NCBI GenBank assembly: GCA_044892525.1
Contig: CM097885.1
Location: 14,572,001 to 14,636,000 of the forward strand
DNA length: 64,000 nt
Origin: Schmidtea polychroa
Lineage: Eukaryota
Direction of reading: 5' to 3'
Positions 15,881 to 63,039 of the stretch are shown here, one piece after another (positions within the stretch are counted from its first letter, which is position 1; every line of letters begins with the position of its first letter). Under the pieces are notes generated by a model. It saw only the letters and a program-made list of their open reading frames with translations. It made no database searches and was not told the origin of the DNA. The position numbers were made by a program, and so were the translations under genes.

Positions 15881-16534
15881 TAAAAATCAGAAAAAGTAAA
15901 ACTAAGAAGGAAAATGTTAAATTAAAATTATTTCATGATTAAATTTTGTAAAATTAAAAGTGAAATTTAAATTTTTTGAAATATATTAGAATTAAAATGG
16001 TTTAAAATAAAAATGAATATTTTAATGTTAATTTTGAAATAAAATAATTTTTGTTAAAATTGCAATTCAAGTATGAATGTGGTATGTTTACGGTATGTTG
16101 ATATTGGTTGAAATTAAAATTTATATAAAGAAAATGTCGCAAGAATATTTGTTTATAAAAGCTGTTTTAAAAATGCAATGAAATATTATAGTAGGTAGTT
16201 AGTGGCCTACGGGAACAATAGGGGGGGGTAAAAATGTTGCAAACTTTTGATTGCATAACTTTTTCCGTAGACATTTTTTGATTACATAATTGTTGCTGTA
16301 ATGCCCAATGTATTCTGGGATTTTAAATACAAATTTTTTTTTTTTTTTTTTTTTTTTTTAATAAACAAGCCAAGGATAAATATTATTTGGGTGGGTCTCC
16401 TTGGTCCTGAGAATTTCAATAGAAAAAGGTAGTCTTCAATAAAAAAGCATGGATTTTTCACACTATAGAGAGGGGACCTTCTTGGTCATGAGAATTTCAA
16501 TAGAAAAGGTGGTTTACATTAAAAAACGCATAGT

Positions 16535-17170
16535 AAATTTTTAAAATAAAGCTAATTATGGTCCTAAAAAATTAAATTACAGTAAATGATGGGTCTAAAA
16601 ATTTAAGTAAATCAAGGTTCAGATTTATTTTTGAAATAAAGTAAATTATGGTCTAAATAAGTAAATTATGGGCTAAGATTTTTCAATTAAAGTAAATAAT
16701 GGTTCTAAAAAATTAAATTACAGTAAATTATGGTCCAAATTTTAAAATTAAAGTAAATTATGGTTCTTAAAAATTAAATTAAAGTAAATTATGGTCCTAA
16801 AAAATTAAATTACAGTAAATAATGGTCAAAAATTTTAAAATTAAAGTAAATTAAGGTTCTAAAATTTAAATTAAAGTTAATTAAGGTCCAAATTTTTAAA
16901 TTAAAGTAAATTAAAGTAAATAATGGTTCTAAAAAATTAAATTAAAGTAAATAATGGTCCTAAAAAATTAAATTACAGTAAATAATGGTCAAAAATTTTA
17001 AAATTAAAGTAAATTAAGGTTCTAAAATTTAAATTAAAGTTAATTAAGGTCCAAATTTTAAAATTAAATAATCAATGGTAAAAAAAATTTAAATTAAAGT
17101 TAAATAAGTAAATTAAAGTAATATTTTTTAAATAAGTAAATTAAAGTAATGTAATAAGTAAATTAAAGTA
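16535..17170. repeat. Subterminal ~30-bp tandem repeat array (aaattaaagtaaattatggtc...), mirrored at about 31190-31760
   Basis: Many imperfect copies of agtaaattatggtc/agtaaattaaggt at about 30-33 bp spacing. Confidence 0.85.
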
Positions 17171-17357
17171 AGATTTTTAAATTTATTAACAAAAATAGAA
17201 GGTGTTTGAGAATTGAAATTTTTTAATGGAAATTTTAATGAATTATTTTTTAAGTAATTTTTAATAGAAATTTTTATGAATAATTTTCAATGGAAATTTT
17301 TAATGGAAATTTTAATAGAATAATTTTTAAGATAATTTTTAATGAAAATTTTTATGA

Positions 17358-17395
<38 letters not shown>

Positions 17396-17582
17396 TAATA
17401 TTAATAATATATCAACCAAATACTATACAACACATAAAAAATTAACTAAACACATAAAAATAACTAGACACATAACAAAACATATAAACATTAACTAAAC
17501 ACATAAAAATGAACTAGACACATAACAAACATAAAAATTTACCAAATAACAAATGTAAAGATATAAAATTTATTCAATAAAA

Positions 17583-20500
17583 TTAGTCCTCATCGGACAA
17601 AATAACGTCATCGATATCGATGTCATCTTCTTCATTAAATTCTTCCTCATCTTCTCCATCATTTTCTCCATCATTTTCTTCCTCATCTTCTCCATCATTT
17701 TCTCCAACATTTTCTGAAACATTTTCTGCAACAATTTCTCCAACATTTTCTCCAATATTTAATTCACTTAATCTTACATGCCCATATGCAAGACTAGTAT
17801 TTTTCCCCACCCAAACCCTTTTGTCATCTTTGTTAGTTAGTGCTATTTTTGTGTTTTTAATTGTAAAAATTTGATGATTTTTGCTTGTTATTTTAGTCTG
17901 AGGAACCGAAAAAATCTGGTTAGTGTTATAACAATCGAGGTATGACTGATGTTTTATGTCACTACCTTTCAATGTTACACCTTTTTGCCTTTTTTGTTTC
18001 ATCATCACCCAACAAGCTATAACATTTAGGTCTAAGAAAAACCCACTCCTTATATTTAAGACCTTTATTCTCGTCTTTGAACTTTCCAATGACTGAATCA
18101 AGGTTCTTGCTATATAAGGAATGACAACTATTGTAATTGGAAGTATCCAATAAATTATCTCGAATCATTGCAGGTAAAAGAACCTCAAGTTTGCAGTTAA
18201 TGACTTCGAGGAAAAAAGAATCTGTATCACCAGCAACGATATTAATTTTACAATTAAACTCATTGCGAAATGATTCCAGATCCTTATATTGCAATTCATA
18301 CATTCTAAGTTTAGATAGATCAAGTACAGATTGACCAATGTAACTCGGTCTATCTAAACATATAGAATCTGAATTCAATAATGTTGCAATTAAATTATCT
18401 GCTATTTTAATAGATTTTTTAAAAGTCGGTTTTGACGAATATTTAACTAATTTACCGGCAGTTGTACAAAGACGAAGATTCATTCTTCTCTTTAAATTTT
18501 CAACTGTTTTGCCGTATAAACTGTTATTTAGCAATTTATAATAATTTTTATCTAAGTTATTTACGCTTTTTGATCTTAATTCGGTATTTGTATCTATATA
18601 TTTTTTAAAAATTGGTGATTGCTTAAATCTTACACCCCTATTTACACGTGTTACTTTAACACCAAGTTCCAAATATAATTTTAATAATCTCCAATGAATA
18701 ACATAATTAGATTTTGGAAGATGAGTTAATAATAATTTTTCAACCTTAGACCGAGCAGGTTTCATTTTTTCAGCAGCTACAGGGAAATCATCCAACTTAT
18801 CATGAAGCTCAGAAGGAATTACAAGATCAACTTCAAGTGTGTATCCATAAGACAAAGATTCAAGATTTAAATTCCTACATTCATCCATTATTTTATCAAA
18901 TCCATCAAGAACCCAACAAAATTCGCCACAAGGTAATGATTGACTTAAAGCCCACCCATAAAGATTATTAATATCTATATAAAGTAACTCGGTGTTCTCG
19001 TCGGTTTTTACGTAATGCTTATTCACAAAAGTAAGACCGCCTCTTATTCCACCCTCATAAAAGCTAAACATTTCGTTTTCAGTTATGAGTTCAATTGGTT
19101 CATTTAAAGATATTAATGCAGAAGACCAAGACATGCCTGGAATTCCGAAATAATTCAAAGGCTCTAATCTATTGTGAGCAATTGATTTCAACCTAAACTG
19201 ATGAAAGAAATCAGCCAAAAGAAAACAATCAAGTTTTAGGTAGATCATCATATAATCTAATAAAGTTCTGCAATTAGATTCTACCCAAATCTCCTGAGCT
19301 TTTTCATACTCAAGCTCAGTGACACCCTCCCAGATTGGTGGTAATTCATACGTAGTTTGTAGAACATCTAAAGAAGTGGCGAAATTATAAGGGAAGATTC
19401 CTTTTTCACTTACTATGGTGCCAGAAAAAGCAGAATTAGTAAAAGGCAAAGAATTCAAAGTTTTGACTGCTTTAGCCAAAGAATCATTGACAAATTGATA
19501 TGAATCAATGAATCTTATGCTAATTTTGCCTAAATGAGCAATCAAAGATATAAATTTTTCCGTAGTTATTGGGATGCACCCTAAATTCCAATTTTTAAAT
19601 TTATTTAATCCATATTTAAGTATATGATGCATATCGTATCCCTTCAAGTTGTGAAATACGATAGGCAAAATTTTATTTATTTTTCTATTTACGTTACATG
19701 TGCTACAAGCTGCACCCAAGTATTTGCCCGTAAAATGATCGTGATCTCTAACAGGATCCACGATAGATTTCAAACAAAGATAACAAACCGTTGAATTAAT
19801 GAATTGTTGTTGCTCAATTTTAGTTAATTTAATCATTGGTTTCCTACCCATTTTATAATAAAAAGGAAGAACCTTATTTAATGCTATATCCTCTATAGCA
19901 CTTAAAAAACTCTCGACGCAATCTAAACCTATAAACTGTTGATAGGATTTAGATCCGTCAAAGTTATTTACTAGTAAAAGACCAGCAGATATTGGCATGT
20001 GTCGCTGAAAATGATCATTATCACAAGGTAAAATAGCCTCAAAATCGGCATAAACTACGAAAGGAGGAGTTACTGTTTTCGACCAGTCAGTAAACTGTAA
20101 GAATTTATTTTGAGGGAAAGTATAAAGAGTTGTTCCTAATTGATTGCGTTTGCATAATATTTCATGTTTTTCTAGTGCGTTTCTATTATTAAACCCATTC
20201 AAACACCGATGGCACCATAATGAACGTATGCGTGTAGGACAACTAGTGTTTATGTGGCAATTCAGTAACCTATTTAAATTGCTTATAGCAATGTAATGGA
20301 AATTGTTCCCTTTATTTAATAATAGTAAATTAATTACTGTTCCATTTAAAACTTTGGAACGATGTATAATGTCTAAATGGGGGTGTTTTAAAACGTAATT
20401 ATCTATTAATTGTTTGTTATTGTCATAAGAAAAAACATTAATTATTAAACCAGGATTTTTGGCCTCGAATTTTCTAATATCTTTTAATTTCATGGGTAAG

Positions 20501-22001
20501 TCCAATGGATTATATATTAACTCAGATAAATTATAACTGGATGTTCTATTTCTATATTGTTTAATAACTTCATCATATTTTAAAATAGCTAAAATGCTAT
20601 ATAAAAAACATGAATCATCGGTGTTTTTTACATTAATTAAACAATATTTATTTTTTAGACAAGTAGGTAGTTCAATGAAACTCCTACCACTTAATCTACT
20701 TAGCCTACTTATCTTTGTTATGGTGAAGTGAATTTCTGTTATTTTTTTTATGATCCAGCTACTTCCTAACTCTGTGATATTACTTATTTTCTCGTTTAGT
20801 TCCCTAATGCCTTCGTCAAAAAATGAGGCAGTTAAAGGTTTTGCGTAATTCGAAATATTATTAACCTTTATTTCCCCATCTTTTTCAAATTCGATTGTTA
20901 TTCCGAATTGAATTTTGACGGAGCCTAATTCGTTAATAATATCTCGTAATTTTATAATTAATTGTTCAGGAAATATTATTTCCTTTATATTTAAGTCGCT
21001 AGTATTTAAACTTAATATTTGATGGGTACCCCTTAGATCTTTTTGTATTATGGGAACATTACCCCCTATTTGTATTATATTTAATCCATCCCAAGAATCA
21101 AAGGAATTGAATAATCCGACCTGGGATTCAACAAAAGGCAATCCGACCTGGGATTCAACAAAAGATAATCCGTCCTGGGATTCAACAACCAATCCATCAT
21201 TGGATTCAACAAAAGACAATCCAGCCTGGGATTCAACCTCTAATCCGACCTGGGATTCAAAAGAAGAAGTATCTAATTTAATTTTTTTATTTGTATTATT
21301 TTTTTCTATAGTTGATGGTCTTTTAAAAACACTATCTTTTTTAAAATTAAACCTATCTAAATGATGTTTATGTTTATTATAAAAAACGCTATATGTTACA
21401 GGGTCACTAGTCTTACATATGGGACATATAAAAAAAGTTTTATTATAATATTTTTTCGTGTAATAATTCTCCATTATAGAATGGCAATTATTATCATGTT
21501 CTTTCGATGAACAATAATTTGGGTAAAGTATACCTATAAAATAAAAATTTAATAAAAAAATATATATATATATATAATTTAAATGAAATATTTTAATAAA
21601 TGTTTACGCATAAATTTACAAATTTTATTTACTAAAAAAAATAAAAATTTACTAAATTAAAAATATTAACATTTAATTAAATAAAAAATTATATTAAATT
21701 TCCTTTAAATTATATAAAAAAGTAATCAATACTTACATTGTAAATTTTCATTTCGATTTATTGACACATTGACATAATTTTTCTCTTTATTCGTATTACC
21801 TAAATTATTAATTAATTAAATCAATTAATAAAAAATTATGTTTACTTTTTCTTTTCAAATTTCCTTTAATCTTCGATTTTAAATTGTCTTCATTAATATT
21901 ATCTAAATTAATTAATAAATTAATTAATAAATAAATTAAAATTTACCAAATTCCTGAATTTTTCCTCGAACATTCATAACGTTTTCTATTAAAGAATTCA
22001 T
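17583..22001 (-). CDS. Protein-primed family B DNA polymerase (pPolB), left-arm copy, with predicted spliced 5' exons and a C-terminal tail in the +1 frame
   Basis: The 1170-aa ORF 17962-21474 has Exo motifs YADFE, FHNLKGYD and YLKLD, polymerase motifs YIDINNLYG, KLLNNSLYGK and GDTDS, and an endonuclease VII-like insert (CYLC...DHDHFTG...CSTCN). Predicted upstream exons are 21947-22001, 21846-21902 and 21737-21799, with exon 4 starting at 21533. The tail (KGV...KIALTNKDDKR) lies in ORF 17583-18101. Confidence 0.9.
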
Positions 22002-22391
22002 TTTTAAAGGTTAACTATTTGTTAAATGTGACTAATAATTGATCATTGTTTATAGATTATTATTGTTTATAGGAACAAATTCTAACCAATCAAAATCAAG
22101 GAAGGGTAGGGAAAAATATATTACGTTGCGGTATTTTAAAATTAAAATTTATTTTAAAAACACATTTTGACGTTAAAGTCGAGTTATGTAACAAAGACAT
22201 AATAAACTTATTATTTACTACAAATATTTCACCTATCAAATACCTAACTAGAGATGCTATATATTGATTGTTCATAAAAGCAAACTTAATCATAAATTTC
22301 TGTATATTATTTTGTAAATTATTTCTGTAAATTAAATTTTGTATATTATTTCTGTAAATTATCAAGTAAATTTAAAGTTCTTGATAAGGTT

Positions 22392-23517
22392 AAATTAAGT
22401 AATCAATGGTCAAATATTTTAAATAAGTAAATTAAAGTAATAATTTTTAAATAAGTAATGTAATAAGCAAATTAAAGTAAGATTTTAAATTTATTAACAA
22501 AATAATAGAAGGTGTTTGAGAATTGAAATTTTTTAATGAAATTTTTATGGAATAATTTTTAAGATAATTTTTAATGAAAATTTTTATGAAATATTTTTCA
22601 ATGAAAATTTTAAATGAAAACTTTTATGAAATATTTTTCAATGACAATTTTAGAAAAAATTTTTTGAAATAATTTTAGATTGAAATTATGTAAATTAAGT
22701 GATACATTTTTAAATTAAAGTAATCAATGGTCTATATTTTAAACTTCTATATTCGGTAAACAAGGACTAAATTAAGTAAATAAAGGGTTAAATTAAAGAA
22801 AATTATGACTAAGTTAATTAGATTTAAAGAATAATTACCTTTTCATTTAACACTACAGTGTTAATTTTTACCATTTTAGAATAATATTTTTTATCAAAGT
22901 TCTTATCTTGATTTATTTAATTTTAATTGAATGTAATGACAAAATAGAGCGTGTTGTCTTCAATTTTAATGAATTAATTTGAAAGATTATTTAGATAAAT
23001 GTTGGTGTTTAAGGTATTCATTAGTAATTATTTTTTTAGAGTTGATGGTTTTTGTGAATTTTTATCATTTTCGTGAATATCATGTGGATTGAATGAATAT
23101 TTAAAAATTTTAAGTTAGTTCTAAATAAATTTAATTAATTTCTTGATAATTGGATGCATTTTAATGGATTGGTTTTTTTTTAAATAAAAATTATTTTTAA
23201 TGACAGTCAGGTTAATAATCATGTGATAGGATATAACTTTGTAATAATATTTTTTTTTCATATTTCTAAGAATTTCATGTTGATTTATTAAAAAATTTAA
23301 AGTTTTAATGATGATTTTAATTGAATTTCTTGATAATTTGTTAAATTTTAAATAAAAATTAATTTTTTTTTAAATGACTGTTATGTTAATAATTAAGTAA
23401 TTGGTTTAATTTTAGATGACTTTGTAATGCATTTGACTAAATATTTTTTTTTCAATAATTTTCTAAGAATATTTACACATTGATGAACTTTTTAAAAAAA
23501 ACATAAGCTAAGAAAAC
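22392..23517 (+). repeat. 1.13-kb direct repeat, copy 1 (spacer of element A)
   Basis: Near-identical to 24841-25968, from aaattaagtaatcaatggtc to aacataagctaagaaa. Confidence 0.92.
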
Positions 23518-23801
23518 AGTAGGTAGATAGTAGCCCACTGCAGCAATGACCCCCCACCCCGGGAGGGGGGTGGGGGGGGGGGGGTTCTGCTGCAACTTTT
23601 GATTGCGCAATTGTTGCAACTAGTTTTTTTTTGTTGTATTTTTTTTTTGTATTATTACGCAATTGTATTATTTTTTTTTCTAGAATTTTCAATACAAAAA
23701 AAAAACAAGTTGCAACAATTGCGCAATCAAATGTTGCAGCAAAAAAAAAGATGCAGCATAAAAAAAGGCTTGCATTTGCAGCGGGCTCCTATCTACCTAC
23801 T
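23518..23801. repeat. Internal 284-bp hairpin cassette with Polinton-like termini
   Basis: Outer stem AGTAGGTAGATAGTAGCCCACTGC...GCAGCGGGCTCCTATCTACCTACT. Inner stem gctgcaacttttgattgcgcaattgttgcaact...agttgcaacaattgcgcaatcaaatgttgcagc. Long G tract at 23561-23584. Confidence 0.88.
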
Positions 23802-23849
23802 ATAAACAGCGTCTGAGAAATGAAAATTTTTTCAATGACAATTTTACAT

Positions 23850-24840
23850 TAAAATTATGGTCTAAAATTTTCAATTAAGTAAATTATGGTCTAAAATTTT
23901 CAATTAAGTAAATTAAGGTCTAAAATTTTCAATTAAGTAAATTATGGTCTAAAATTTTCAATTAAGTAAATTAAGGTCTAAAATTTTAAATTAAAGTAAA
24001 TTATGGTATATATTTTTAAACTTAAGTAAATTAAAGATAAATAAGCAAATTAAGGTCTAAAATTTCCAATTAAGTAAATTAAGGTCTAAAATTTTAAATT
24101 AAAGTAAATTATGGTATATATTTTTAAACTTAAGTAAATTAAAGATAAATAAGCAAATTAAGGTCTAAAATTTCCAATTAAGTAAATTAAGGTCTAAAAT
24201 TTTCAATTAAGTAAATTATGGTCTAAAATTTTCAATTAAGTAAATTAAGGTCTAAAATTTTAAATTAAAGTAAATTATGGTATATATTTTTAAACTTAAG
24301 TAAATTAAAGATAAATAAGCAAATTAAGGTCTAAAATTTCCAATTAAGTAAATTAAGGTCTAAAATTTTCAAATAAGTAAATTATGGTCTAAAATTTTAC
24401 ATGAAATTATGGTCTAAAATTTTCAACTAAGTATATTATGGTCTAAAATTTTAAATTAAAGTAAATTAAAGATAAATAAGCAAATTAAGGTCTAAAATTT
24501 TCAATTAAGCAATTTAAGGTCTAAAATTTTCAAATAAGTAAATTATGGTCTAAAATTTTACATGAAATTAAGGTTTAAAATTTTCAATTGAGTTCTAAAA
24601 TAAAGTCTAAAATTTCAATTAAGTAAATTATGGTATATATTTTTAAACTTAAGTAAATTAAAGATAAATAAGCAAATTAAGGTCTAAAATTTCAATTAAG
24701 TAAATTATGGTCTAAAAATTTCAATTAAAGTAAATTAAGGTCCAAATTTGAATTAAAGTTAATTAAGGTTCAAAATTTAAAATTAAAGTAAATAAATGTT
24801 CTAAAAAATTAAATTAAAGTAAATTAAGGTCCAAATTTTT
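23850..24840. repeat. 29-bp tandem repeat array (aaattttcaattaagtaaattaaggtcta)
   Basis: Direct reading shows many units with some higher-order blocks; related to the subterminal arrays of the arms. Confidence 0.9.
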
Positions 24841-25968
24841 AAATTAAGTAATCAATGGTCAAATATTTTAAATAAGTAAATTAAAGTAATAATTTTTAAA
24901 TAAGTAATGTAATAAGCAAATTAAAGTAAGATTTTAAATTTATTAACAAAATAATAGAAGGTGTTTGAGAATTGAAATTTTTTAATGAAATTTTTATGGA
25001 ATAATTTTTAAGATAATTTTTAATGAAAATTTTTATGAAATATTTTTCAATGAAAATTTTAAATGAAAACTTTTATGAAATAATTTTCAATGACAATTTT
25101 AGAAAAAATTTTTTGAAATAATTTTAGATTGAAATTATGTAAATTAAGGGATACATTTTTAAATTAAAGTAATCAATGGTCTATATTTTAAACTTCTATA
25201 TTCGGTAAACAAGGACTAAATTAAGTAAATAAAGGGTTAAATTAAAGAAAATTATGACTAAGTTAATTAGATTTAAAGAATAATTACCTTTTCATTTAAC
25301 ACTACAGTGTTAATTTTTACCATTTTAGAATAATATTTTTTATCAAAGTTCTTATCTTGATTTATTTAATTTTAATTGAATGTAATGACAAAATAGAGCG
25401 TGTTGTCTTCAATTTTAATGAATTAATTTGAAAGATTATTTAGATAAATTTTGGTGTTTAAGGTATTCATTAGTAATTATTTTTTTAGAGTTGATGGTTT
25501 TTGTGAATTTTTATCATTTTCGTGAATATCATGTGGATTGAATGAATATTTAAAAATTTTAAGTTAGTTCTAAATAAATTTAATTAATTTCTTGATAATT
25601 GGATGCATTTTAATTGATTGGTTTTTTTTTTAAATAAAAATTATTTTTAATGACAGTCAGGTTAATAATCATGTGATAGGATATAACTTTGTAATAATAT
25701 TTTTTTTTCATATTTCTAAGAATTTCATGTTGATTTATTAAAAAATTTAAAGTTTTAATGATGATTTTAATTGAATTTCTTGATAATTTGTTAAATTTTA
25801 AATAAAAATTAATTTTTTTTTTAAATGACTGTTATGTTAATAATTAAGTAATTGGTTTAATTTTAGATGACTTTGTAATGCATTTGACTAAATATTTTTT
25901 TTTCAATAATTTTCTAAGAATATTTACACATTGATGAACTTTTTAAAAAAAACATAAGCTAAGAAACC
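24841..25968 (+). repeat. 1.13-kb direct repeat, copy 2
   Basis: Near-identical to 22392-23517; abuts the inner end of the right arm. Confidence 0.92.
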
Positions 25969-26269
25969 AGTTAACCTTATCAAGAACTTTAAATTTACTT
26001 GATAATTTACAGAAATAATATACAAAATTTAATTTACAGAAATAATTTACAAAATAATATACAGAAATTTATGATTAAGTTTGCTTTTATGAACAATCAA
26101 TATATAGCATCTCTAGTTAGGTATTTGATAGGTGAAATATTTGTAGTAAATAATAAGTTTATTATGTCTTTGTTACATAACTCGACTTTAACGTCAAAAT
26201 GTGTTTTTAAAATAAATTTTAATTTTAAAATACCGCAACGTAATATATTTTTCCCTACCCTTCCTTGAT

Positions 26270-26335
26270 TTTGATTGGTTAGAATTTGTTCCTATAAACA
26301 ATAATAATCTATAAACAATGATCAATTATTAGTCA
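26270..26335 (+). promoter_or_regulatory. Putative Pol II promoter of pPolB (mirrored at about 22029-22094)
   Basis: Reverse CCAAT (gattgg, about 26273), TATAAA at 26293 and 26310, and Inr-like ttagtc at about 26329, all just upstream of ATG 26363. The AT-rich context makes chance matches plausible. Confidence 0.4.
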
Positions 26336-26362
26336 CATTTAACAAATAGTTAACCTTTAAAA

Positions 26363-29300
26363 ATGAATTCTTTAATAGAAAACGTTATGAATGTTCGAGG
26401 AAAAATTCAGGAATTTGGTAAATTTTAATTTATTTATTAATTAATTTATTAATTAATTTAGATAATATTAATGAAGACAATTTAAAATCGAAGATTAAAG
26501 GAAATTTGAAAAGAAAAAGTAAACATAATTTTTTATTAATTGATTTAATTAATTAATAATTTAGGTAATACGAATAAAGAGAAAAATTATGTCAATGTGT
26601 CAATAAATCGAAATGAAAATTTACAATGTAAGTATTGATTACTTTTTTATATAATTTAAAGGAAATTTAATATAATTTTTTATTTAATTAAATGTTAATA
26701 TTTTTAATTTAGTAAATTTTTATTTTTTTTAGTAAATAAAATTTGTAAATTTATGCGTAAACATTTATTAAAATATTTCATTTAAATTATATATATATAT
26801 ATATTTTTTTATTAAATTTTTATTTTATAGGTATACTTTACCCAAATTATTGTTCATCGAAAGAACATGATAATAATTGCCATTCTATAATGGAGAATTA
26901 TTACACGAAAAAATATTATAATAAAACTTTTTTTATATGTCCCATATGTAAGACTAGTGACCCTGTAACATATAGCGTTTTTTATAATAAACATAAACAT
27001 CATTTAGATAGGTTTAATTTTAAAAAAGATAGTGTTTTTAAAAGACCATCAACTATAGAAAAAAATAATACAAATAAAAAAATTAAATTAGATACTTCTT
27101 CTTTTGAATCCCAGGTCGGATTAGAGGTTGAATCCCAGGCTGGATTGTCTTTTGTTGAATCCAATGATGGATTGGTTGTTGAATCCCAGGACGGATTATC
27201 TTTTGTTGAATCCCAGGTCGGATTGCCTTTTGTTGAATCCCAGGTCGGATTATTCAATTCCTTTGATTCTTGGGATGGATTAAATATAATACAAATAGGG
27301 GGTAATGTTCCCATAATACAAAAAGATCTAAGGGGTACCCATCAAATATTAAGTTTAAATACTAGCGACTTAAATATAAAGGAAATAATATTTCCTGAAC
27401 AATTAATTATAAAATTACGAGATATTATTAACGAATTAGGCTCCGTCAAAATTCAATTCGGAATAACAATCGAATTTGAAAAAGATGGGGAAATAAAGGT
27501 TAATAATATTTCGAATTACGCAAAACCTTTAACTGCCTCATTTTTTGACGAAGGCATTAGGGAACTAAACGAGAAAATAAGTAATATCACAGAGTTAGGA
27601 AGTAGCTGGATCATAAAAAAAATAACAGAAATTCACTTCACCATAACAAAGATAAGTAGGCTAAGTAGATTAAGTGGTAGGAGTTTCATTGAACTACCTA
27701 CTTGTCTAAAAAATAAATATTGTTTAATTAATGTAAAAAACACCGATGATTCATGTTTTTTATATAGCATTTTAGCTATTTTAAAATATGATGAAGTTAT
27801 TAAACAATATAGAAATAGAACATCCAGTTATAATTTATCTGAGTTAATATATAATCCATTGGACTTACCCATGAAATTAAAAGATATTAGAAAATTCGAG
27901 GCCAAAAATCCTGGTTTAATAATTAATGTTTTTTCTTATGACAATAACAAACAATTAATAGATAATTACGTTTTAAAACACCCCCATTTAGACATTATAC
28001 ATCGTTCCAAAGTTTTAAATGGAACAGTAATTAATTTACTATTATTAAATAAAGGGAACAATTTCCATTACATTGCTATAAGCAATTTAAATAGGTTACT
28101 GAATTGCCACATAAACACTAGTTGTCCTACACGCATACGTTCATTATGGTGCCATCGGTGTTTGAATGGGTTTAATAATAGAAACGCACTAGAAAAACAT
28201 GAAATATTATGCAAACGCAATCAATTAGGAACAACTCTTTATACTTTCCCTCAAAATAAATTCTTACAGTTTACTGACTGGTCGAAAACAGTAACTCCTC
28301 CTTTCGTAGTTTATGCCGATTTTGAGGCTATTTTACCTTGTGATAATGATCATTTTCAGCGACACATGCCAATATCTGCTGGTCTTTTACTAGTAAATAA
28401 CTTTGACGGATCTAAATCCTATCAACAGTTTATAGGTTTAGATTGCGTCGAGAGTTTTTTAAGTGCTATAGAGGATATAGCATTAAATAAGGTTCTTCCT
28501 TTTTATTATAAAATGGGTAGGAAACCAATGATTAAATTAACTAAAATTGAGCAACAACAATTCATTAATTCAACGGTTTGTTATCTTTGTTTGAAATCTA
28601 TCGTGGATCCTGTTAGAGATCACGATCATTTTACGGGCAAATACTTGGGTGCAGCTTGTAGCACATGTAACGTAAATAGAAAAATAAATAAAATTTTGCC
28701 TATCGTATTTCACAACTTGAAGGGATACGATATGCATCATATACTTAAATATGGATTAAATAAATTTAAAAATTGGAATTTAGGGTGCATCCCAATAACT
28801 ACGGAAAAATTTATATCTTTGATTGCTCATTTAGGCAAAATTAGCATAAGATTCATTGATTCATATCAATTTGTCAATGATTCTTTGGCTAAAGCAGTCA
28901 AAACTTTGAATTCTTTGCCTTTTACTAATTCTGCTTTTTCTGGCACCATAGTAAGTGAAAAAGGAATCTTCCCTTATAATTTCGCCACTTCTTTAGATGT
29001 TCTACAAACTACGTATGAATTACCACCAATCTGGGAGGGTGTCACTGAGCTTGAGTATGAAAAAGCTCAGGAGATTTGGGTAGAATCTAATTGCAGAACT
29101 TTATTAGATTATATGATGATCTACCTAAAACTTGATTGTTTTCTTTTGGCTGATTTCTTTCATCAGTTTAGGTTGAAATCAATTGCTCACAATAGATTAG
29201 AGCCTTTGAATTATTTCGGAATTCCAGGCATGTCTTGGTCTTCTGCATTAATATCTTTAAATGAACCAATTGAACTCATAACTGAAAACGAAATGTTTAG

Positions 29301-30781
29301 CTTTTATGAGGGTGGAATAAGAGGCGGTCTTACTTTTGTGAATAAGCATTACGTAAAAACCGACGAGAACACCGAGTTACTTTATATAGATATTAATAAT
29401 CTTTATGGGTGGGCTTTAAGTCAATCATTACCTTGTGGCGAATTTTGTTGGGTTCTTGATGGATTTGATAAAATAATGGATGAATGTAGGAATTTAAATC
29501 TTGAATCTTTGTCTTATGGATACACACTTGAAGTTGATCTTGTAATTCCTTCTGAGCTTCATGATAAGTTGGATGATTTCCCTGTAGCTGCTGAAAAAAT
29601 GAAACCTGCTCGGTCTAAGGTTGAAAAATTATTATTAACTCATCTTCCAAAATCTAATTATGTTATTCATTGGAGATTATAAAAATTATATTTGGAACTT
29701 GGTGTTAAAGTAACACGTGTAAATAGGGGTGTAAGATTTAAGCAATCACCAATTTTTAAAAAATATATAGATACAAATACCGAATTAAGATCAAAAAGCG
29801 TAAATAACTTAGATAAAAATTATTATAAATTGCTAAATAACAGTTTATACGGCAAAACAGTTGAAAATTTAAAGAGAAGAATGAATCTTCGTCTTTGTAC
29901 AACTGCCGGTAAATTAGTTAAATATTCGTCAAAACCGACTTTTAAAAAATCTATTAAAATAGTAGATAATTTAATTGCAACATTATTGAATTCAGATTCT
30001 ATATGTTTAGATAGACCGAGTTACATTGGTCAATCTGTACTTGATCTATCTAAACTTAGAATGTATGAATTGCAATATAAGGATCTGGAATCATTTCGCA
30101 ATGAGTTTAATTGTAAAATTAATATCGTTGCTGGTGATACAGATTCTTTTTTCCTCGAAGTCATTAACTGCAAACTTGAGGTTCTTTTACCTGCAATGAT
30201 TCGAGATAATTTATTGGATACTTCCAATTACAATAGTTGTCATTCCTTATATAGCAAGAACCTTGATTCAGTCATTGGAAAGTTCAAAGACGAGAATAAA
30301 GGTCTTAAATATAAGGAGTGGGTTTTTCTTAGACCTAAATGTTATAGCTTGTTGGGTGATGATGAAACAAAAAAGGCAAAAAGGTGTAACATTGAAAGGT
30401 AGTGACATAAAACATCAGTCATACCTCGATTGTTATAACACTAACCAGATTTTTTCGGTTCCTCAGACTAAAATAACAAGCAAAAATCATCAAATTTTTA
30501 CAATTAAAAACACAAAAATAGCACTAACTAACAAAGATGACAAAAGGGTTTGGGTGGGGAAAAATACTAGTCTTGCATATGGGCATGTAAGATTAAGTGA
30601 ATTAAATATTGGAGAAAATGTTGGAGAAATTTTTGCAGAAAATGTTTCAGAAAATGTTGGAGAAAATGATGGAGAAGATGAGGAAGAAAATGATGGAGAA
30701 AATGATGGAGAAGATGAGGAAGAATTTAATGAAGAAGATGACATCGATATCGATGACGTTATTTTGTCCGATGAGGACTAA
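26363..30781 (+). pseudogene. pPolB, right-arm copy, with a private nonsense mutation
   Basis: Matches the left copy except TTA>TAA at 29680-29682 and two visible missense changes (IADN>IVDN, EIVAE>EIFAE). Predicted exons 26363-26417, 26462-26518, 26565-26627 and from 26831. AATAAA at 30790 follows the stop at 30781. Confidence 0.9.
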
Positions 30782-30968
30782 TTTTATTGAATAAATTTTA
30801 TATCTTTACATTTGTTATTTGGTAAATTTTTATGTTTGTTATGTGTCTAGTTCATTTTTATGTGTTTAGTTAATGTTTATATGTTTTGTTATGTGTCTAG
30901 TTATTTTTATGTGTTTAGTTAATTTTTTATGTGTTGTATAGTATTTGGTTGATATATTATTAATATTA

Positions 30969-31006
<38 letters not shown>

Positions 31007-32292
31007 TCATAAAAATTTTCATTAAAAATTATCTTAAAAATTATTCTATTAAAATTTCCATTAAAAATTACCATTGAAAATTATTCATAAAAATTTCTAT
31101 TAAAAATTACTTAAAAAATAATTCATTAAAATTTCCATTAAAAAATTTCAATTCTCAAACACCTTCTATTTTTGTTAATAAATTTAAAAATCTTACTTTA
31201 ATTTACTTATTACATTACTTTAATTTACTTATTTAAAAAATATTACTTTAATTTACTTATTTAACTTTAATTTAAATTTTTTTTACCATTGATTATTTAA
31301 TTTTAAAATTTGAACCTTAATTAACTTTAATTTAATTTTTAGAACCTTAATTTACTTTAATTTTAAAATTTTTGACCATTATTTACTGTAATTTAATTTT
31401 TTAGAACCATTATTTACTTTAATTTACTTTAATTTAAAAATTTGGATCATAATTTACTTTAATTTAAATTTTTGGACTGTAATTCAAAAATTTTGACCAT
31501 AATTTACTTTAATTTAATTTTTAAGAACCATAATTTACTTTAATTTTAAAATTTGGACCATAATTTACTGTAATTTAATTTTTTAGAACCATTATTTACT
31601 TTAATTGAAAAATCTTAGCCCATAATTTACTTATTTAGACCATAATTTACTTTATTTCAAAAATAAATCTGAACCTTGATTTACTTAAATTTTTAGACCC
31701 ATCATTTACTGTAATTTAATTTTTTAGGACCATAATTTGCTTTATTTTAAAAATTTACTATGCGTTTTTTAATGTAAACCACCTTTTCTATTGAAATTCT
31801 CATGACCAAGAAGATCCCCTCACTATAGTGTGAAAAATCCATGCTTTTTTATTGAAGACTACCTTTTTCTATTGAAATTCTCAGGACCAAGGAGACCCAC
31901 CCAAATAATATTTATCCTTGGCTTGTTTATTGAAAAAAAAAAAAAAAAAAAAAAAATTTTGTATTTAAAATCCCAGAAAACATTGGGCATTACAGCAACA
32001 ATTATGTAATCAAAAAATGTCTACGGAAAAAGTTATGCAATCAAAAGTTTGCAACATTTTTACCCCCCCCCCCCCCCCCTATTGTTCCCGTAGGCCACTA
32101 ACTACCTACTTATTATTTTGAATTTATTTAGTCTTAGTAATTTATTTGATGATAGAATAATTGATTGTTATAGCTTTTAACACAATAAATGGAGAAATGG
32201 GAGAAAACACCAAAGGATAGTGGAGGTGATTCACACGGAAAGCCAAGGTAGCAAGCCAAATACTGCACATAACTAGCCATAATAATAATAAC

Positions 32293-32326
<34 letters not shown>

Positions 32327-37204: not shown

Positions 37205-38400
37205 ACCAAATATTTCAAGAATCCTAGAGGTGCAACTGTTATTGGTTTTCTTGTACGACAAGCATATTCGAATAATCGTAACTTTCTGATCAGTGTATTT
37301 CAAGATGCTTCAAATTACCGCATGGATATATATTTCTTGATTTTACCCAACAATGTCCTGATGATTTATGGGTAAAAACTGATATTTTCAACAAAGAAAG
37401 GGTTTATAAACAAGATTAAAAACAGGCTTGAGTAATAATGTTTTTCAAAGCGACTTAGAAATCATAAGAAAACTTAGAAAAGGTATTAGAAAGAGTATTA
37501 AAATCAAAGTTCCACCCAAAACTAGTTATACTCCATCTAAAATACTTGTTACTAAATATTTCCCGGTAATGATACTTATTTCAAAAAATCCTAAACCTAA
37601 GAAGAATAATAATAAAAAGAAACAGGCCAAAGTTATTAAAAATAATCAGAGTTTCCCGTTTTATAATGCATTGTTAAGGGCCCGAACATGAAAAGAATGA
37701 ATATTTTACATTCATTTTCAAATTTTGTTGTCCATAAATTACTCGATATTATACTCAATATAGTCAAAGGCAGGACAAATCAGTAAATCCAAAAAATCAT
37801 TTTTTGAATAGACACAGGAAATTTTTGTTATCGTTAGTATATAATAAAAATCGTAACTAAATGATAAAAATTATATATAAACAATAAAGCGGATTTATTC
37901 GTACATTGTTACCATTAACATTATCATTATTAATAGGAGTAATAGGAAATCAAACATAAACAATGGACGCTTATCCTTCATTACCCGAGATTAAATTTAA
38001 ATTTTCTTGTTGTAATGAAGAAAATTTGGACGAACCCCGAAGACGAAGCAGATTTTGGTGGAGTGACAATGTTAAATAATTGAGTTCCGAATTCAAAAAC
38101 AGAAACTCAGTGGTTATCAGAAACACCTGCCTACAGTTTGAAAAAGTCAATGCGGAAAAGATTTCAAACAAGAGCTTATAAAAAATTAGGTATATTCAAT
38201 TAATGGCATATTGATTTGATGAAGATGAAACTGTATTCGAAAATTAACAAGTGTTATAAATATATTTTAAAATGTATTGATGTTTTCAGTCACTTTACCC
38301 GTGCAATTCCAGTCAAGGCAAAATCTGTAGATGAAATGCCTAAAGCAATTAATAATTTATTTAAATATGGACATCCAAAAAACTTATAAACTTTTTTAGG
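37205..38400 (+). pseudogene. Heavily decayed Polinton fragment (ATPase C-terminus, basic/QGG protein, integrase N-terminus)
   Basis: Colinear homology to 53940-55160 (tttcaagaatcctagag, caatgtcctgatgattta, KVPPKTSYTPSK, gcaattccagtcaaggcaaaatctg), with many stops. Confidence 0.88.
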
Positions 38401-38418
38401 TATTATTATTATTATTTA

Positions 38419-38481
<63 letters not shown>

Positions 38482-39490: not shown

Positions 39491-40009
39491 ATGAACAGAT
39501 CAAAATCTTTTTTCGAAATCTTCCAATGTTCCAGGCGGTGGAGATTCTAATTTTTTAATGGTTGGTCCCAATTATAGAGTAGGTAAAAAAATTGGTTGTG
39601 GAAATTTTGGTGAACTTCGATTAGGTATTATAATAAATATAATCACTTTTAAAATGTTTCCTTATTTTCATACTGTTTCAGGGAAAAATTTATATACGAA
39701 CGAACATGTTGCTATAAAATTAGAACCCATGAAAACCAGAGCACCCCAATTACATTTAGAATACAGATTTTATAGAATGCTCAATTCTAACAGTTACTAT
39801 TTCATTTATTATATTATGGTTGTGATTAATAATTTTAACAATTTTTAGGTAATCCAATAACAGGTTTTCCAAAAGTCTTTTACTTTGGACCATGCGGTCG
39901 ATACAATGCCTTAGTTTTAGAATTACTGGGTCCGTCTTTGGAAGATTTGTTTGATCATTGCAATAGGCAATTCTCGTTAAAAACAGTATTGATGTTAGCC
40001 ATTCAATTA
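39491..40009 (+). CDS. CSNK1G: Casein kinase 1 gamma (gilgamesh-like), first three coding exons; the remainder is not seen in the window
   Basis: [53 protein letters not shown]...|[30 protein letters not shown]...[15 protein letters not shown] introns at 39625-39681 and 39793-39848, with a donor GTGAGT at 40010. Confidence 0.93.
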
Positions 40010-40641
40010 GTGAGTTCTTTTTAATTATTTAAATTTAAAAACTAATATTATTCAATTTTGTTTAAATTGGAAATAATTTATTTGATAAAAATTAAATAGC
40101 TCAGTTTGTGAATTAATTATATTTATTAAATATACATGTTATAAATTATTATCTGAATTCTTAATAGTTAATATTCATTTTGCATTTATATTCGACATGA
40201 ATGTTTAATCAGTTCCACAAGACCACAGCAAGATTGGTGGTCAATCTAAACGCTAATTCGCCTGTCATTATTGCGAACTCGTTTTTCATTAGTTGTTTAC
40301 AAGGCCATTTAATTTCATTGGACAAATTGGTAGCTCTATCAGTGTGCTATATTCCAATGATTTACAGTTGCTAAATTAATCATTTTTAATTTATATTTGA
40401 TTTCTATTAATTAGAAGCATGCATTTCATGTTAGTTGGAATTATTGAGAAATTTGCTTGCTTAGTAAGGATTTGTGAGCCATTTCTATTCTTTTTCGCTG
40501 GTAGGCAAGCCACTAAATATAATTGAAACTAATAATAATAATTACAAAATTATCACAATAAAAATAATAAAAAGTCGGATTGATAATAAATTGAAAAACA
40601 ATAAATGTAAAATTATAAAAATATTGATAACAAGAAATAAT

Positions 40642-40695
<54 letters not shown>

Positions 40696-40849
40696 TAAAA
40701 TGATAAATAAAAATGGTAAAGAAGAAATAATATTAATAATAATAATAATAAAAATAATAATAATTAAAATGTTAAATAATAATAATAATATAAATAATAG
40801 TAATAAAATTAATTATAATAGTAATAAAAATAATATTAATAAATAATAA

Positions 40850-40916
<67 letters not shown>

Positions 40917-41796
40917 TATATTAATTAATAATAAATAATAATTAATAATAAATAATAATAATTAGCTCTATCAGTGTGCTATATTCCAATTATTTACAGT
41001 TGCTAAATTAATCATTTTTAATTTATATTTGATTTTTATTAATTAGAAGCATGCATTTCATGTTAGTTGGAATTATTGAGAAATTTGCTTGCTTTTTAAG
41101 GATTTGTGAGCCATTTCTATTCTTTTTCGCCGGTGGGCAAGCCACAAAATATATTTGATACTAAAAATAATAATTACAAAATTATCACAATAAAAATAAT
41201 AACATAATAAAAACTCGGAATGATTAAAAATTGAAAAACAATAAATATAAAATTATAAAAATATTGATAGCAATAAATACAAATGGAAATAATAATAATA
41301 ATATGGTGAAAATGACCATCTCATCCATTCAGCTCCATAAACAATATGGGATTCGCCTATATTAATCATTTAGCTATTTCAGCAAATAAAATATAAAAAA
41401 ACGTAAAGGTAATAATTCAAAAATTTATAAACAATAAATCAAATTTATTAATGATTATAAAAAATATTTAAAAAATGAACTGTTCAATTTGTTTTGCTGA
41501 ATCAAAGCACGCACAGATACTCGCATACCAAAATTAGGATATATATCGATGCAATTCAGTCACCATTTAATCCAATCGAGCTGTTCTAAGTTATTCTGAA
41601 AACCAAGAGCCGAATAATTTTGATTTTTGAACTATTGTTTATGCAATTTTAATAGTGAGCCGATTTTGATTTTTTGTTATCATATTTGTTAAATTATGGT
41701 AAATAGATTTGTTAGAGGGGTTTCAGCTTTTTTATCTTTTTCTAAAACAAACCACTCTAACTCTAGGTAACCATGATTATTATGAGTTTTAAGCCC
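39754..41796 (+). repeat. Left arm of a ~2-kb diverged inverted duplication (partner 60931-63960)
   Basis: Reverse-complement matches from atttagaatacag (39754/63960) to catgattattatgagtttt (about 41790/60940). Confidence 0.88.
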
Positions 41797-42659
41797 ACAA
41801 CCAGCTTATTCCACAAGGGAATAAAAGACACAATAAAGTACAATTAAATCACTAGATGCAGATCTTGATGTAGAATAAATATTATCTCTCAACTTCCAAT
41901 TTTACGTTTTTTTATATATGATAATTTTCGATTTTGATATCTGGATTTTGCACCTTTATCACCGATTTTTTTTCTGAGGTCTTGGACGAGAAGACATCTA
42001 TCATATCGAATGAAGCTTTCTTTCAAATATATTTTGCATTGTCCATCAACAAATATTTGATAACATACAACAACAGATTAAACTAATGCATATCTGAATG
42101 CATAAATTTGAGAGTTCTTTCCAGCACTTCAACTCGGATTTTTATATCCAATTGTTTTACTCTTTCGTCGATACGAGTCAACAAAAATTCCTGGAGTTTA
42201 GCTTTCTAAGGAGTTGGTGCGACTACAATTATATCGTGTCAGCTAACTATCGTTGACAACAATGTTTATATCACTTTTTTGGGATATAACTCTACCTCGA
42301 TCATTACTACTATTATCATTAGCATTAATCTTAATTGGTTAAGATGAAATGATAAGATAATAAGATAGCCACATCCCACTAGAGGCAGATCATTGCGTTA
42401 AATAAATATTATCTCTTACCTTCCACTTTAACTTTTTTTTGACATCTGATATTTTTCGATTTTTGATATCCGGCTCTTGCAGCTTGATCACCGATTTTTC
42501 TATTGCTATCAGACTCCGATAACAGACACCGAAATTTCATCACCATCAAACAATTAAGTAGTAACTTCATTAATTTATTTTCTTTCATTTTCAGTATTTA
42601 AATAAATTTTTGTTTTAGGAATTTTACTATTGAAAATCCAAAATAATTTAGCTCCAGTC

Positions 42660-45600
42660 ATGTCGTTATCACTGAGATTTCATTTATTTACAATCTTCTA
42701 CCACCACGACCGCCTTTCCTTCTTGTCGAATCTTGAGGAACCTAGGTGACGTTAACGATTCTTCTAATCTTCACTCCAGCTCTTGCCATAACTCTCATGA
42801 CAGTTGCAGCAGCTTGAGATTGAGCTGGTGATCTCTGTAATCCTCAACCTACTCATATTTCGATGTGGACTGCGTGATTCCGAGTAATTATCATTTATCA
42901 GCCACGTCAAGAGCTGCGAGCATAGCTGCATATTGACTGAGTTCATCTCTGTCGGCTTTGACTTTCAAACAACCGGTAATTTTGACGAAAGTCTCAACTC
43001 ATAAAGATTTCATTTATTTACAATCTTCTATCTCCACGACCGCCTTTCCTTCTTGTCGAACCATGAGGAAATTGGGTGATGTTTACGAATCTTCCAATCT
43101 TCACTCCAGCTCTTGCTATGACTCTCATGGCAGTTGCAACCGCTTGAGATGGAGCTGTTGATCTCTTTAATTCTAAACCTACTCTGATTTCGATGTGGAC
43201 TGCGGTGATTCCGAGTAATAATCATTTATCAGCAACATCATAAGCTGCTAACATAGCTGCATATGGACTGCGTTCATCTCTGTCGGCTTTGACTTTCAAT
43301 ACATTTTTCTTTCATTTTCAGTATTTAAATCAAAAAAAAATAGTAAATGTTATCACTGACATTGCATTTATTTACAATCTTCTACCACCACGACCGCCAT
43401 TCCTTCTTGTAGAATCATGAGAAACTTGGGTTACATTTCGATTCTTCCAATCTTCACTCCAGCTCTTGCTATGACTCTCATGTCAGTTGCAACAGCTTGA
43501 GATGGAGCTGGTGATCTCGTGAATTCTCCACCTACTCTGATTTCGATGAAGACTGCGGTGATTCCGAGTAATTATCATTTATCAGCCATATCATGAGCTG
43601 CGAGCATAGCGGCATATTGATTGCTATCATCTCTCTCGGCTTTGACTTTCTAAGAACCAGTAAGTTTAAGCTCCTTTCACGTCGGTAACTTGAATGAAGT
43701 GTCATTGTTTCCAGCATAGATGTGAGAGATACTGAAATTATCTTTACCATCAACCAATTTAGGTCCCAAAGTGGTAACTTCATTTACTTCATTACTTTTA
43801 CATTTTTTTTTAAATTTTTTTTATTTTTTAATATTTTTATAGAAAATACTTTTTTCTTTCATTTTCAGTATTTATATCAAAACAAATGGTAAATGTTATC
43901 ACTGACATTTCTTGTATGTACAATCTTCTACCACCACGAAAGCCTTTCCTTCTTGTCGAAAAATGAAGAACTTGGGTGATGTTTACGAATCTTCCAATCT
44001 TCACTCCAACTCTTGCTATGACTCATAACAGCTTGAGAAGGAGCTGGTGATCTCTTTACTTCTTCACCTACTCTGATTTCGATGTGGACTGCGTTGATTC
44101 CGAGTAATTATCATTTATCAGCCACATAATGATCTGCGAGCATTGCGGCATATTGACTGCCTTCATCTCTCTCGGCTTTGACTTTCAAAGAACCAGTAAT
44201 TTTGACGAAAGTTTCAGATCCTGTCACGTCGGTTACTAAAAGGAAGGTGTCATTGTTTCCAGCATAGATGTGAGAGATACTGAAATTTTCTTTACCATCA
44301 ACCAATTTAGGTTCCAAAGTGGTAACTTCATTAATATCATTACTTTTAAATTTCTTTTTTTAAATTTTTTTTTATTTTTTTAATATTTATCTATTAAATA
44401 CTTTTTTCTTTCATTTTCAGTATTTAAATCAAAAAAAATAGTAAATGTTATCACTGACATTTCATGTAATTACAATCTTCTACCACCACGACCGCCATTC
44501 CTTCTTGTAGAATCATGAGAAACTTGGGTTACATTTCGATTCTTCCAATCTTCACTCCAGCTCTTGCCATGACTCTCATGGCAGTTGCAACATGAATATT
44601 ATGAATACATAATTATAATTTATCAGCCATATCATGAGCTGAGAGCATAGCGGCATATTGACTGCCTTCATTTCATCGACTTTGACTTTCAAAGAACCAG
44701 TAATTTTGACGAAATTTTAAGCTCCTGTAACGTCGGTAACTTGAATGAAGGTGTCATTGTTTCCAGAAATTCTGAAATTTTCTTTACCATCAACCAATTT
44801 AGGTCCCAAAGTGGTAACTTCATTAATTGCATTACTTTTACATTTTTTTTTAAATTTTTTTTATTTTTTTAATATTTTTATAAATATTAATACTTTTTTC
44901 TTTCATTTTCAGTATTTAAATCAAAACAAATGGTAAATGTTATCACTGACATTTCATGTATTTACAATCTTCTACCACCACGAAAGCCTTTCCTTCTTGT
45001 CGAATAATGAGGAACTTCGGTGATGTTTACGAATCTTCCAATCTTCACTCCAGCTCTTGCTATGACTCTTAACAGCTTGAGATGGAGCTGGTGATCTCTT
45101 TACTTCTTCAACTACTGTGATTTCGATGTGGACTGCGTTGATTCCGAGTAATTATCATTTATCAGCCACATAATGATCTGCGAGCATAGCGGCATATTGA
45201 CTTCCTTCATCTCTCTCGGCTTTGACTTTCAAAGAACCAGTAATTTTGACGAAAGTTTCAGATCCTGTCAACGTCGCCAACTAAAAGGAACGTGTCATTG
45301 TTTCCAGCATAGATGTGATAACTTCATTAATTTCATTACTTTTACATTTTTTTTAAAATTGTTTTATTTTTTTAAAATTTTTTTTATTTTTTTTAATATT
45401 TTTATAAAAAATACTTTTTTCTTTCATTTTCAGTATTTAAATCAAAACAAATGCTAAATGTTATCACTGACATTTCATGTATTTACAATCTTCTACCACC
45501 ACGACCGCCTTTTTTTCTTGTAGAATCATGAGAAACTCGGGTTACATTTCGATTCTTCTAATCTTCACTCCAGCTCTTGCCATGACTCTCATGGCAGTTG

Positions 45601-46740
45601 CAACATGAATATTATGAATACATAATTATAATTTATCAGCCACATCATGAGCTGCGAGCATAGCGGCATATTGACTGCCTTCATCTCATCGACTTTGACT
45701 TTCAAAGAACCAGTAATTTTGACGAAAGTTTAAGCTCCTGTAACGTCGGTAACTTGAATGAAGGTGTCATTGTTTCCAGCATAGATGTGAGAGATACTGA
45801 AATTTTCTTTACCATCAACCAATTTAGGTCCCAAAGTGGTAACTTCATTAATTTCATTAATTTTAAATTTCTTTTTTTAAATTTTTTTTATTTTTTTAAT
45901 ATTTTTCTTTCATTTTCAGTATTTAAATCAAACAAAATAGTAAATGTTATCACTGACATTTCATGTTTTTACAATCTTCTACCACCACGAAAGCCTTTCC
46001 TTCTTGTCGAATAATGAGGAACTTCGGTGATGTTTACGGATCTTCCAATCTTCACTCCAGCTCTTGCTATGACTCATAACAGCTTGAGATGGAGCTGGTG
46101 ATCTCTTTACTTCTTCACCTACTCTGATTTCGATGTGGACTGCGTTGATACCGAGTAATTATCATTTATCAGCCACATCATGAGCTGCGAGCATAGCGGC
46201 ATATTGACTGCAATCATCCCTGTCGGCTTTGACTTTCAAAGAACCAGTAATTTTGACGAAAGTTTCAGCTCGTCTGTGGCTGCTGATATCCTGATTATCA
46301 ACCTAATGTCTTTCTTCTTTGATATTTCTGATTTATATTCAAAATATTTAAACAATTTTTATCTATTTTGCTGTTTAAAATTTCAAATTTCATATTCTAA
46401 AATTACTTTTTTTAATAAATTAATTTCTCTACTTTTAAAATTTTTAATATTTCATTTCTATCTTTTATAAATAAAACCTTTTTTTCATTTTTAATATTTA
46501 AATCAAACTTTTTTTTTAAAAATCCAAAATTATATTAAATGTTATCACGGAGATTACATGGATATACAATCTTCGATTACGACGACGAACTTTCCTTCTT
46601 GTGGAATCATGAGGAAAGGTTTCGATTTTTCCTATCTTCATTCCACCTCTCTCCATGTGTCTCAAGGCAGTTGTTGTAGCTTGAGATGGAGCTGGTGATC
46701 TCCTTAATCCTCCATCAACTCTGATTTCAATGTGGTCTAC
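42660..46740 (-). pseudogene. RPS14: Tandem array of nine decayed 40S ribosomal protein S14 (uS11) pseudogene copies
   Basis: Minus-strand peptides [33 protein letters not shown] and STRRKGGRGGRRL*. 3' ends lie at about 42690, 43020, 43374, 43920, 44472, 44963, 45485, 45971 and 46566. Confidence 0.92.
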
Positions 46741-54154: not shown

Positions 54155-54172
54155 AAACCTCTATGAATAATT

Positions 54173-54707: not shown

Positions 54708-54769
54708 AACAATGTATGCTAATCCTTCATTGCCCGACATTAAATTTAATTTTAAATCTTCTTGCTGTA

Positions 54770-62923: not shown

Positions 62924-62969
<46 letters not shown>

Positions 62970-62970
62970 T

Positions 62971-63039
<69 letters not shown>

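Follow-up and report, generated by a model that had tools for sequence, protein, structure and literature searches.

Tetrahymena rDNA and the palindromic mini-genomes of phi29 are parallels to the locus described here, and replicons with resolution sites are exemplified by terminal resolution in AAV and by the hairpin-telomere resolvases. Polintons (Mavericks) are defined as in PMC8097293, PMC4196379, PMC6431247 and 10.1101/2023.08.22.554363, with general background in PMC4974454 and PMC4057610, and their copying rests on an untested model with a single-stranded racket-shaped intermediate (PMC4196379). In AAV, hairpins cause snapback forms by template switching (10.1101/2020.08.01.230755, PMC7397707), and a phi29 review mentions both template switching and subgenomic molecules (PMC4974454). 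Terminal palindromes have been proposed as hairpin replication primers in Halocafeteria virophages and PLVs (10.64898/2026.07.28.741278), and in E. coli a 246-bp interrupted palindrome passes through hairpin intermediates to large inverted duplications of which it is the centre (PMC3315005). Among titles and the first lines of abstracts in a collection with few subscription papers, none was found to describe a polymerase-only Polinton that is palindromic and has inner termini.

The window, which is the whole stretch of 64,000 nucleotides that was analysed, consists of A+T-rich eukaryotic DNA and carries an element, here called element A, with an intron-split Nup205 gene on its left. A first-pass annotation had interpreted a 284-bp cassette inside element A as a double terminus that could divide it into two overlapping replicons. 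This reading is partly supported, and the layout is plainer than a pair of overlapping replicons would be. Two Polinton-type ends, facing inward, make up the cassette, which is attached to the inner array of a polymerase-only Polinton derivative present in high copy number. We put the probability at about one half that the cassette is a fold-back primer and the centre of a head-to-head palindrome of ∼16.9 kb, of which element A would be a once-rearranged copy; this role is likelier than that of a cut site releasing two smaller units.

Layout of element A

Element A occupies 16190-32110 (15,921 bp) and is bounded on both sides by the target-site duplication (TSD) TATTAT, which matches at 6/6 positions. 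Its outer ends carry AGTAGGTAG at 16190 and, inverted, at 32102-32110, and the outer terminal bases of the two ends are identical at 20/20 positions. The features are as follows.

16184..16189, no strand: left TSD copy TATTAT, 6/6 with 32111-32116
16190..22393, minus: left arm, an inverted copy of 25971-32110 with outer terminus, 31-bp array, gaagg block, pPolB and its upstream region
17583..18005, minus: C-terminal piece of the left pPolB in another frame, then an acidic repeat
17962..21474, minus: left pPolB, a Polinton-type protein-primed DNA polymerase ORF of 1170 aa (PF03175, E 2.4e-31)
22390..23517, plus: U1, a direct copy of 24839-25968, both junctions non-native
23518..23801, no strand: cassette C, two inward-facing Polinton-type termini, hairpin-forming
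23802..24838, plus: 50-bp spacer (starting ATAAAC), then the inner array, a 29-bp tandem array (TRF period 29)
24839..25970, plus: U2, comprising array end, gaagg block, 13/40-bp array and ∼850 bp of non-coding sequence, in native position
25969..25974, no strand: site b, to which both non-native left-half junctions map
25971..32110, plus: right arm, carrying the second pPolB copy
26890-30781, plus: right pPolB, with the same C-terminal frame break and a premature stop near 29681
32111..32116, no strand: right TSD copy TATTAT
16190 (plus), 23518 (plus), 23784-23801 (minus) and 32093-32110 (minus): sites of the terminus pattern

The two arms, each of ∼6.2 kb, are 98.2% alike over 6224 columns and differ in 25 blocks overall. 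The divergence is unevenly distributed, with zero differences over 18684-22393 (3.7 kb), where ∼16 would be expected at the U1/U2 rate, and six substitutions in the outer 370 bp. Under every model considered, this unevenness needs an added homogenising or conversion event. Rare letters are common to both arms, for example at 22044 (<0.1% of depth in the sequencing run X1 described below). U1 and U2 are 99.4% identical, with five substitutions and two one-base indels (seven difference blocks). Since 22394-23517 is a direct and not an inverted copy, a perfect mirror up to the cassette is absent from element A. The positions at which the left arm and U1 stop (22393 and 23517) correspond alike to 25969-25971, with overlaps of 4 bases between U1 and the arm (22390-22393) and 3 bases between U1 and the start of the cassette, so that both odd junctions, 1.1 kb from each other, fall within 0-3 bp of one site. 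For that site, a single event is more economical than two.

Both 18-mers given by the first-pass annotation as the ends of the cassette are present on reading the letters. Its outer inverted repeat spans 25 bp (92%) and its inner inverted repeat 45 bp (96%). The calculated DNA fold of the cassette has an energy of -84 kcal/mol and a z of -11.9, equalled by 0/200 shuffles, versus an ordinary fold of the outer terminus 16190-16520 (z -0.73). The terminus pattern has four matches in 64 kb against 0.04 expected (0/100 shuffles). The two cassette termini face inward as in a miniature element, not outward as in a fusion of two left ends. The annotation had also ascribed to the cassette the start, G tract and acttttgattgc box of the outer ends. 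The start is retained, with 17/20 of the first bases identical in the left half and 15/20 in the right half and the first nine bases of the outer ends kept in both inner termini; so is the box, which lies at 16243 and 23595 and inverted at 32037. The G tract, together with a small G/C hairpin, is found in the left half (23518-23679) and is missing from the right half (23680-23801). Past about base 18-20, neither half resembles the outer terminus clearly above shuffles (left 10/300, right 139/300), and the likeness is confined to the first 20 bases and short boxes.

The bases flanking the cassette, GAAAAC and ATAAAC, match at 4/6 positions, so that it has no clean TSD; the first-pass annotation had stated that none flanks it. 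The left flank is a rearrangement junction; its last four bases, next to the cassette, are the same as those that close the right 6-bp flank, and position 23516 departs from the family letter. ATAAAC is likewise present in the outer terminus, at 16361, and the 50-bp spacer shows no homology clearly above shuffles to 16355-16560. TATAAAC spans the last base of the cassette, at 23801-23807. ATTGCGCAAT, present twice, and related boxes lie in the inner and outer termini (23602, 23654, 23718, 16250 and 16281); these boxes look like sites for C/EBP or PAR-bZIP proteins and may be where host factors bind an origin. Downstream of the cassette, the array and the gaagg block follow in the same order as at the outer left end, as had been claimed, and 23518-32110 reads array, U, pPolB, terminal repeat. 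The gaagg block lies at 17198 and 24957, in inverted form at 31149, and a further time before the cassette, at 22508. The inner array is 85% like the outer array in aligned columns and the subterminal gaagg-type block 92%; these are the values for the two ends of the 8.6-kb unit 23518-32110, versus 98% for the outer arms.

Elsewhere in the window, a TBP-family ORF at 52987-53337 (Pfam E 3.7e-16) lies beside a weak A32-like ATPase piece at 53651-54154 (E 0.005), both within a decayed Polinton-like stretch, and 37213-38438 is an 80% copy of 53941-55195. A tandem array of ∼500-bp units that are 80-95% alike occupies 42600-46740. The inverted repeat 39754-41051 / 62638-63960, a 93% duplication 22 kb apart, was considered as a second such element and rejected; it is a duplicated piece of a host gene, reading by eye like casein kinase 1, and does not have these termini.

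Polymerase genes and the family in public contigs

The pPolB sequence has 523 homologues, the best at 64%. In both copies the frame breaks near codon 1,165, leaving ∼70 conserved residues in another frame; for the left copy, the piece at 17583-18005 is identical at 41/71 positions to residues 1155-1225 of the protein P0001 (E 2e-28). As assembled, neither copy is intact. Where the first-pass annotation had one pPolB per unit, there is one copy per arm, both of them broken. Within 16190-32110, no further ORF has a match, with no integrase, ATPase, protease or capsid gene among them; 0/26 short frames matched the relative loci, and an Rfam search over 16000-32300 gave no matches. No nicking or resolving enzyme was found encoded in element A, and such an enzyme may act in trans. 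A CCAAT-type box is located upstream of pPolB (26262-26316), followed by TATAAAC at 26293 and 26310; 19 bases of this box are identical at L005:16-34, in a relative with 51% protein identity.

Among relatives, one in locus L063 adjoins an rve integrase and an A32-like ATPase. A search of viral_contigs with the pPolB of the window gave no relative, and one with alignment A1 gave 14 distant loci at 25-32%. In the 80 metagenome loci retained out of 463, the DNA-level match to element A is confined to pPolB. No giant palindrome was found in two overlapping sets of 12 and 18 relative loci checked for inverted repeats, most of which are contigs of 2-6 kb, so that this negative carries little weight. 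The junction pattern has no match in genome_contigs and the inner-box pattern none in either viral_contigs or genome_contigs. Two matches of the terminus pattern in viral_contigs, both lacking the G tract and box downstream, were taken as chance. In L029:1-183, an element end that opens with AGTAGGTAG and has a distant G run directly adjoins the middle of a pPolB gene, which is 59% identical to that of the window, and L093:1-6543 is a complete 6.5-kb element with 272-bp terminal inverted repeats (TIRs), a distant (27%) pPolB and a few other ORFs.

Parts of 17550-23880 are present in 20 of the 24 sequencing runs listed, from seven studies, and no RNA run is listed among them. Four runs (X1, X5, X7 and X9) from four studies were aligned to 21280-23880; all consist of contigs, so that molecule ends are invisible, and X1 possibly represents the sample of origin. 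X1 alone placed 31,215 contigs on this region, and the element family is present in very high copy, although contig depth as such is not usable as a copy number. Behind 22393, the native continuation is the mirror of the end of U (ten X5 contigs, agreement 0.98), and behind 23520 it is the start of the pPolB side (two X5 contigs); before 22390-22392, other copies have array sequence (28 contigs in X1, four in X9). These continuations of loose ends indicate that the right half has the family order (array-U-pPolB) and that the two left-half junctions are foreign. The U2 letter is the prevalent one in the runs at 22700, 23001 and 23166. U1 is rare, since at 23166 the U2 letter accounts for 99.8, 99.4, 100 and 100% of depth in the four runs (4/4); U1 letters are seen in <1% of depth.

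The junction between cassette and array (23801/23802) was regarded as bridged when a contig had 31 letters on each side. One X7 contig spans 23759-23868, a range worked out from distances to the contig end and not listed as a piece, with 43 and 67 letters on the two sides; it has four differences from the window and is the sole X7 cover at those positions. A variant at 23792 marks a further 36 contigs of X1 and 28 of X5, which cross the junction with <31 letters on one side, and X9 has no cover there. The cassette-array junction thus recurs in at least one diverged copy, and since a diverged copy shares it the cassette is not a fresh MITE insertion. The first-pass annotation had allowed that the cassette might occur only as an independent MITE; the recurring junction speaks against this, as does an inverted-repeat and terminus-pattern search that found no free copy in the remaining 48 kb of the window. 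In each of the four runs, the cassette is covered no more deeply than U or the arm. The listed joints (15/124) and loose ends (24/1353) include neither a strand-change joint nor a loose end at 23518. In one X1 contig, 23518 is preceded by A+T-rich sequence placed at 22583, and this sequence has a weak likeness to the mirrored array start (8/300 shuffles).

Origin of the arrangement

We evaluated the palindrome against the window and the public contigs. Starting from the observed hairpin, outer 6-bp TSD, array-U-pPolB order, recurring junction and mapping to site b, we infer all steps from self-priming onward. The predicted fold of the cassette bottom strand has a fully paired 13-bp 3' end and a 5' template overhang, which is the geometry predicted for a self-primer with M (23802-32110) as template. 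Were the cassette to terminate a single strand, its 3' end would pair 13/13 with the inner terminus and prime copy-back of M. Strand displacement, protein-primed and starting at the open outer end, would then give a duplex mirror(M)-C-M of 2 × 8309 + 284 = 16,902 bp. Its two outer ends would be identical, and a Polinton integrase supplied in trans would insert it with a 6-bp TSD. One inversion, from site b to the left edge of the cassette, together with loss of the 1-kb array would yield the observed 15,921 bp and create the illusion of two overlapping units. The palindrome accounts for the mapping of two junctions to one site by that one inversion, and the drift between inner and outer termini (85%, 92%) against 98% in the arms is expected if the arms, and not the ends of a unit, pair. 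A length of 16.9 kb matches the 16,862 ± 1,678 bp given for intact vertebrate Mavericks in PMC8097293. Against it, an intact mirror(M)-C-M copy was not seen in the window or the four contig runs. The left breakpoint lies exactly on a terminus, which better suits a free end or an integrase cut than a random inversion, and the bases of the left flank suit a cut-down TSD, where the palindrome predicts the reverse complement; the uneven divergence of the arms, too, calls for the extra homogenising event.

It is possible, if doubtful, that 23518-32110 is the native 8.6-kb monomer with the cassette as its left end and that the left 7.3 kb is a one-off addition, whose source would be either another copy that had broken at site b or a hairpin-stalled fork that switched template and returned to 23518. 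The native order in the loose ends fits such a monomer, and this part of the earlier 8.6-kb unit holds. The junction falling exactly at terminus 23518 fits as well, as does a left half that keeps the first nine bases, the G tract and the box of the outer end and 17/20 identity to it. This proposed unit, however, has no TSD of its own at this locus (flanks 2/6), its two ends are just 85-92% alike inside, and two or three separate joins would have to meet at site b by coincidence. Weak evidence against it as well is that <0.5% of the aligned X1 and X5 contigs continue into unlike sequence. The X1 contig with other sequence before 23518 would suit the monomer, but its joint 22583-23518 fits monomer and palindrome equally and is counted for neither. 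We regard it as unlikely that the cassette began as a miniature element of Polinton descent that landed long ago at ATAAAC in a terminal or central repeat, or as what is left of a nested insertion there, and was amplified as a passenger with no role in replication; most of its left TSD would have been lost in the rearrangement of element A. The cassette is short and non-coding with terminal inverted repeats, as MITEs are, and both its ends face inward; its flanks agree at 4/6, with the matching base at 23516 being a non-family letter, and ATAAAC recurs in the outer terminus at 16361. The L029 end, with the same first nine bases and lying against the middle of a related pPolB gene, indicates that such ends land inside relatives. 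Set against this, U1 has four other private substitutions, so that one more beside the junction is unremarkable, the window's other 48 kb hold no free copy, and cassette depth, which is not copy number, does not rise above that of U or the arm in the four runs.

It is very improbable that element A works as a dimer from which resolution at the cassette yields replicons of 7.6 and 8.6 kb, even though both inner termini keep the first nine bases of the outer ends and one breakpoint lies exactly at 23518. The 7.6-kb unit that had been proposed for 16190-23801 is not supported: its flanks at this locus match at 1/6, its right end has neither array nor TIR, and U1, with its rare letters, and the junctions look locus-specific. 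No resolving enzyme is encoded, and both pPolB copies are broken. Equally hard to credit is an artefact, in which the dimer and its junctions would stem from fold-back or collapse of long reads. The identity of the arms over 3.7 kb would suit it, as would the lack, among the contigs listed, of any that bridges 22393 or 23517 by 31 letters on each side; the distinct host flanks with a perfect TSD, the 25 difference blocks between the arms and seven between U1 and U2, and the retention of rare letters that were not polished away argue otherwise.

A bolder extension of the palindrome, which we consider speculative and improbable, is a polymerase-only Polinton satellite that would alternate between two forms, a monomer of 8.6 kb ending in a hairpin and a palindromic dimer of capsid size (16.9 kb), with the double terminus serving as self-primer and integrase-cut resolution site, and with protein priming at one end and AAV-like hairpin priming at the other. 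If the palindrome is correct, a family with a hairpin derived from termini at its centre would preserve a fossil trace of fold-back by displaced single strands, and fold-back would explain the origin of capsid-sized mirror-image satellites. If the cassette is instead a passenger MITE, the finding would be ordinary transposon debris.

Comparison with known systems

Element A shares with Polintons a 6-bp TSD, AGT...ACT ends, a PF03175 polymerase and a length near the 16.9-kb mean (PMC8097293). Polinton TIRs measure 46-1,447 bp (about 100-1500 bp as a class criterion), in contrast to the 6.2-kb arms of element A. The end motif AGTAGGTAG is a variant, the Polinton motifs described in PMC8097293 being (AGT)2 or (AG)3. 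Unlike Polintons, element A has two polymerase copies and two extra internal termini, and it lacks integrase, ATPase, protease and capsid genes and hence is not an autonomous member. The cassette is like a MITE in being short and non-coding, with terminal inverted repeats of the type of an autonomous partner; it appears unlike one in that a clean TSD is missing, the right neighbour stays the same in a diverged copy (X7, 1/1 covering contig) and there is no sign of excess free copies.

The Halocafeteria palindromes, according to 10.64898/2026.07.28.741278, measure ∼52 nt, lie at both TIR tips beside the TSD and occur mostly in elements without pPolB, whereas the cassette measures 284 bp, is internal, comprises two whole termini and belongs to a pPolB element. 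Palindrome-nucleated inverted duplications take place in chromosomes or phages, whereas an integrating element would result here, and this copy is no longer a perfect palindrome. With the snapback and self-complementary genomes of AAV, element A has in common a mirror genome, identical outer ends and a central turn. AAV relies on Rep nicking and hairpin ends, whereas in element A the outer ends belong to the protein-primed, integrase-substrate type, and neither Rep nor a terminal resolution site was found in it. Element A agrees with a snapback genome in its outer ends and mirrored arms and departs from it in that the mirror does not extend to the central hairpin; symmetry up to the cassette is what we infer for the family alone. 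Element A resembles both a non-autonomous Polinton and a snapback genome, yet it is neither an autonomous Polinton nor a perfect mirror.
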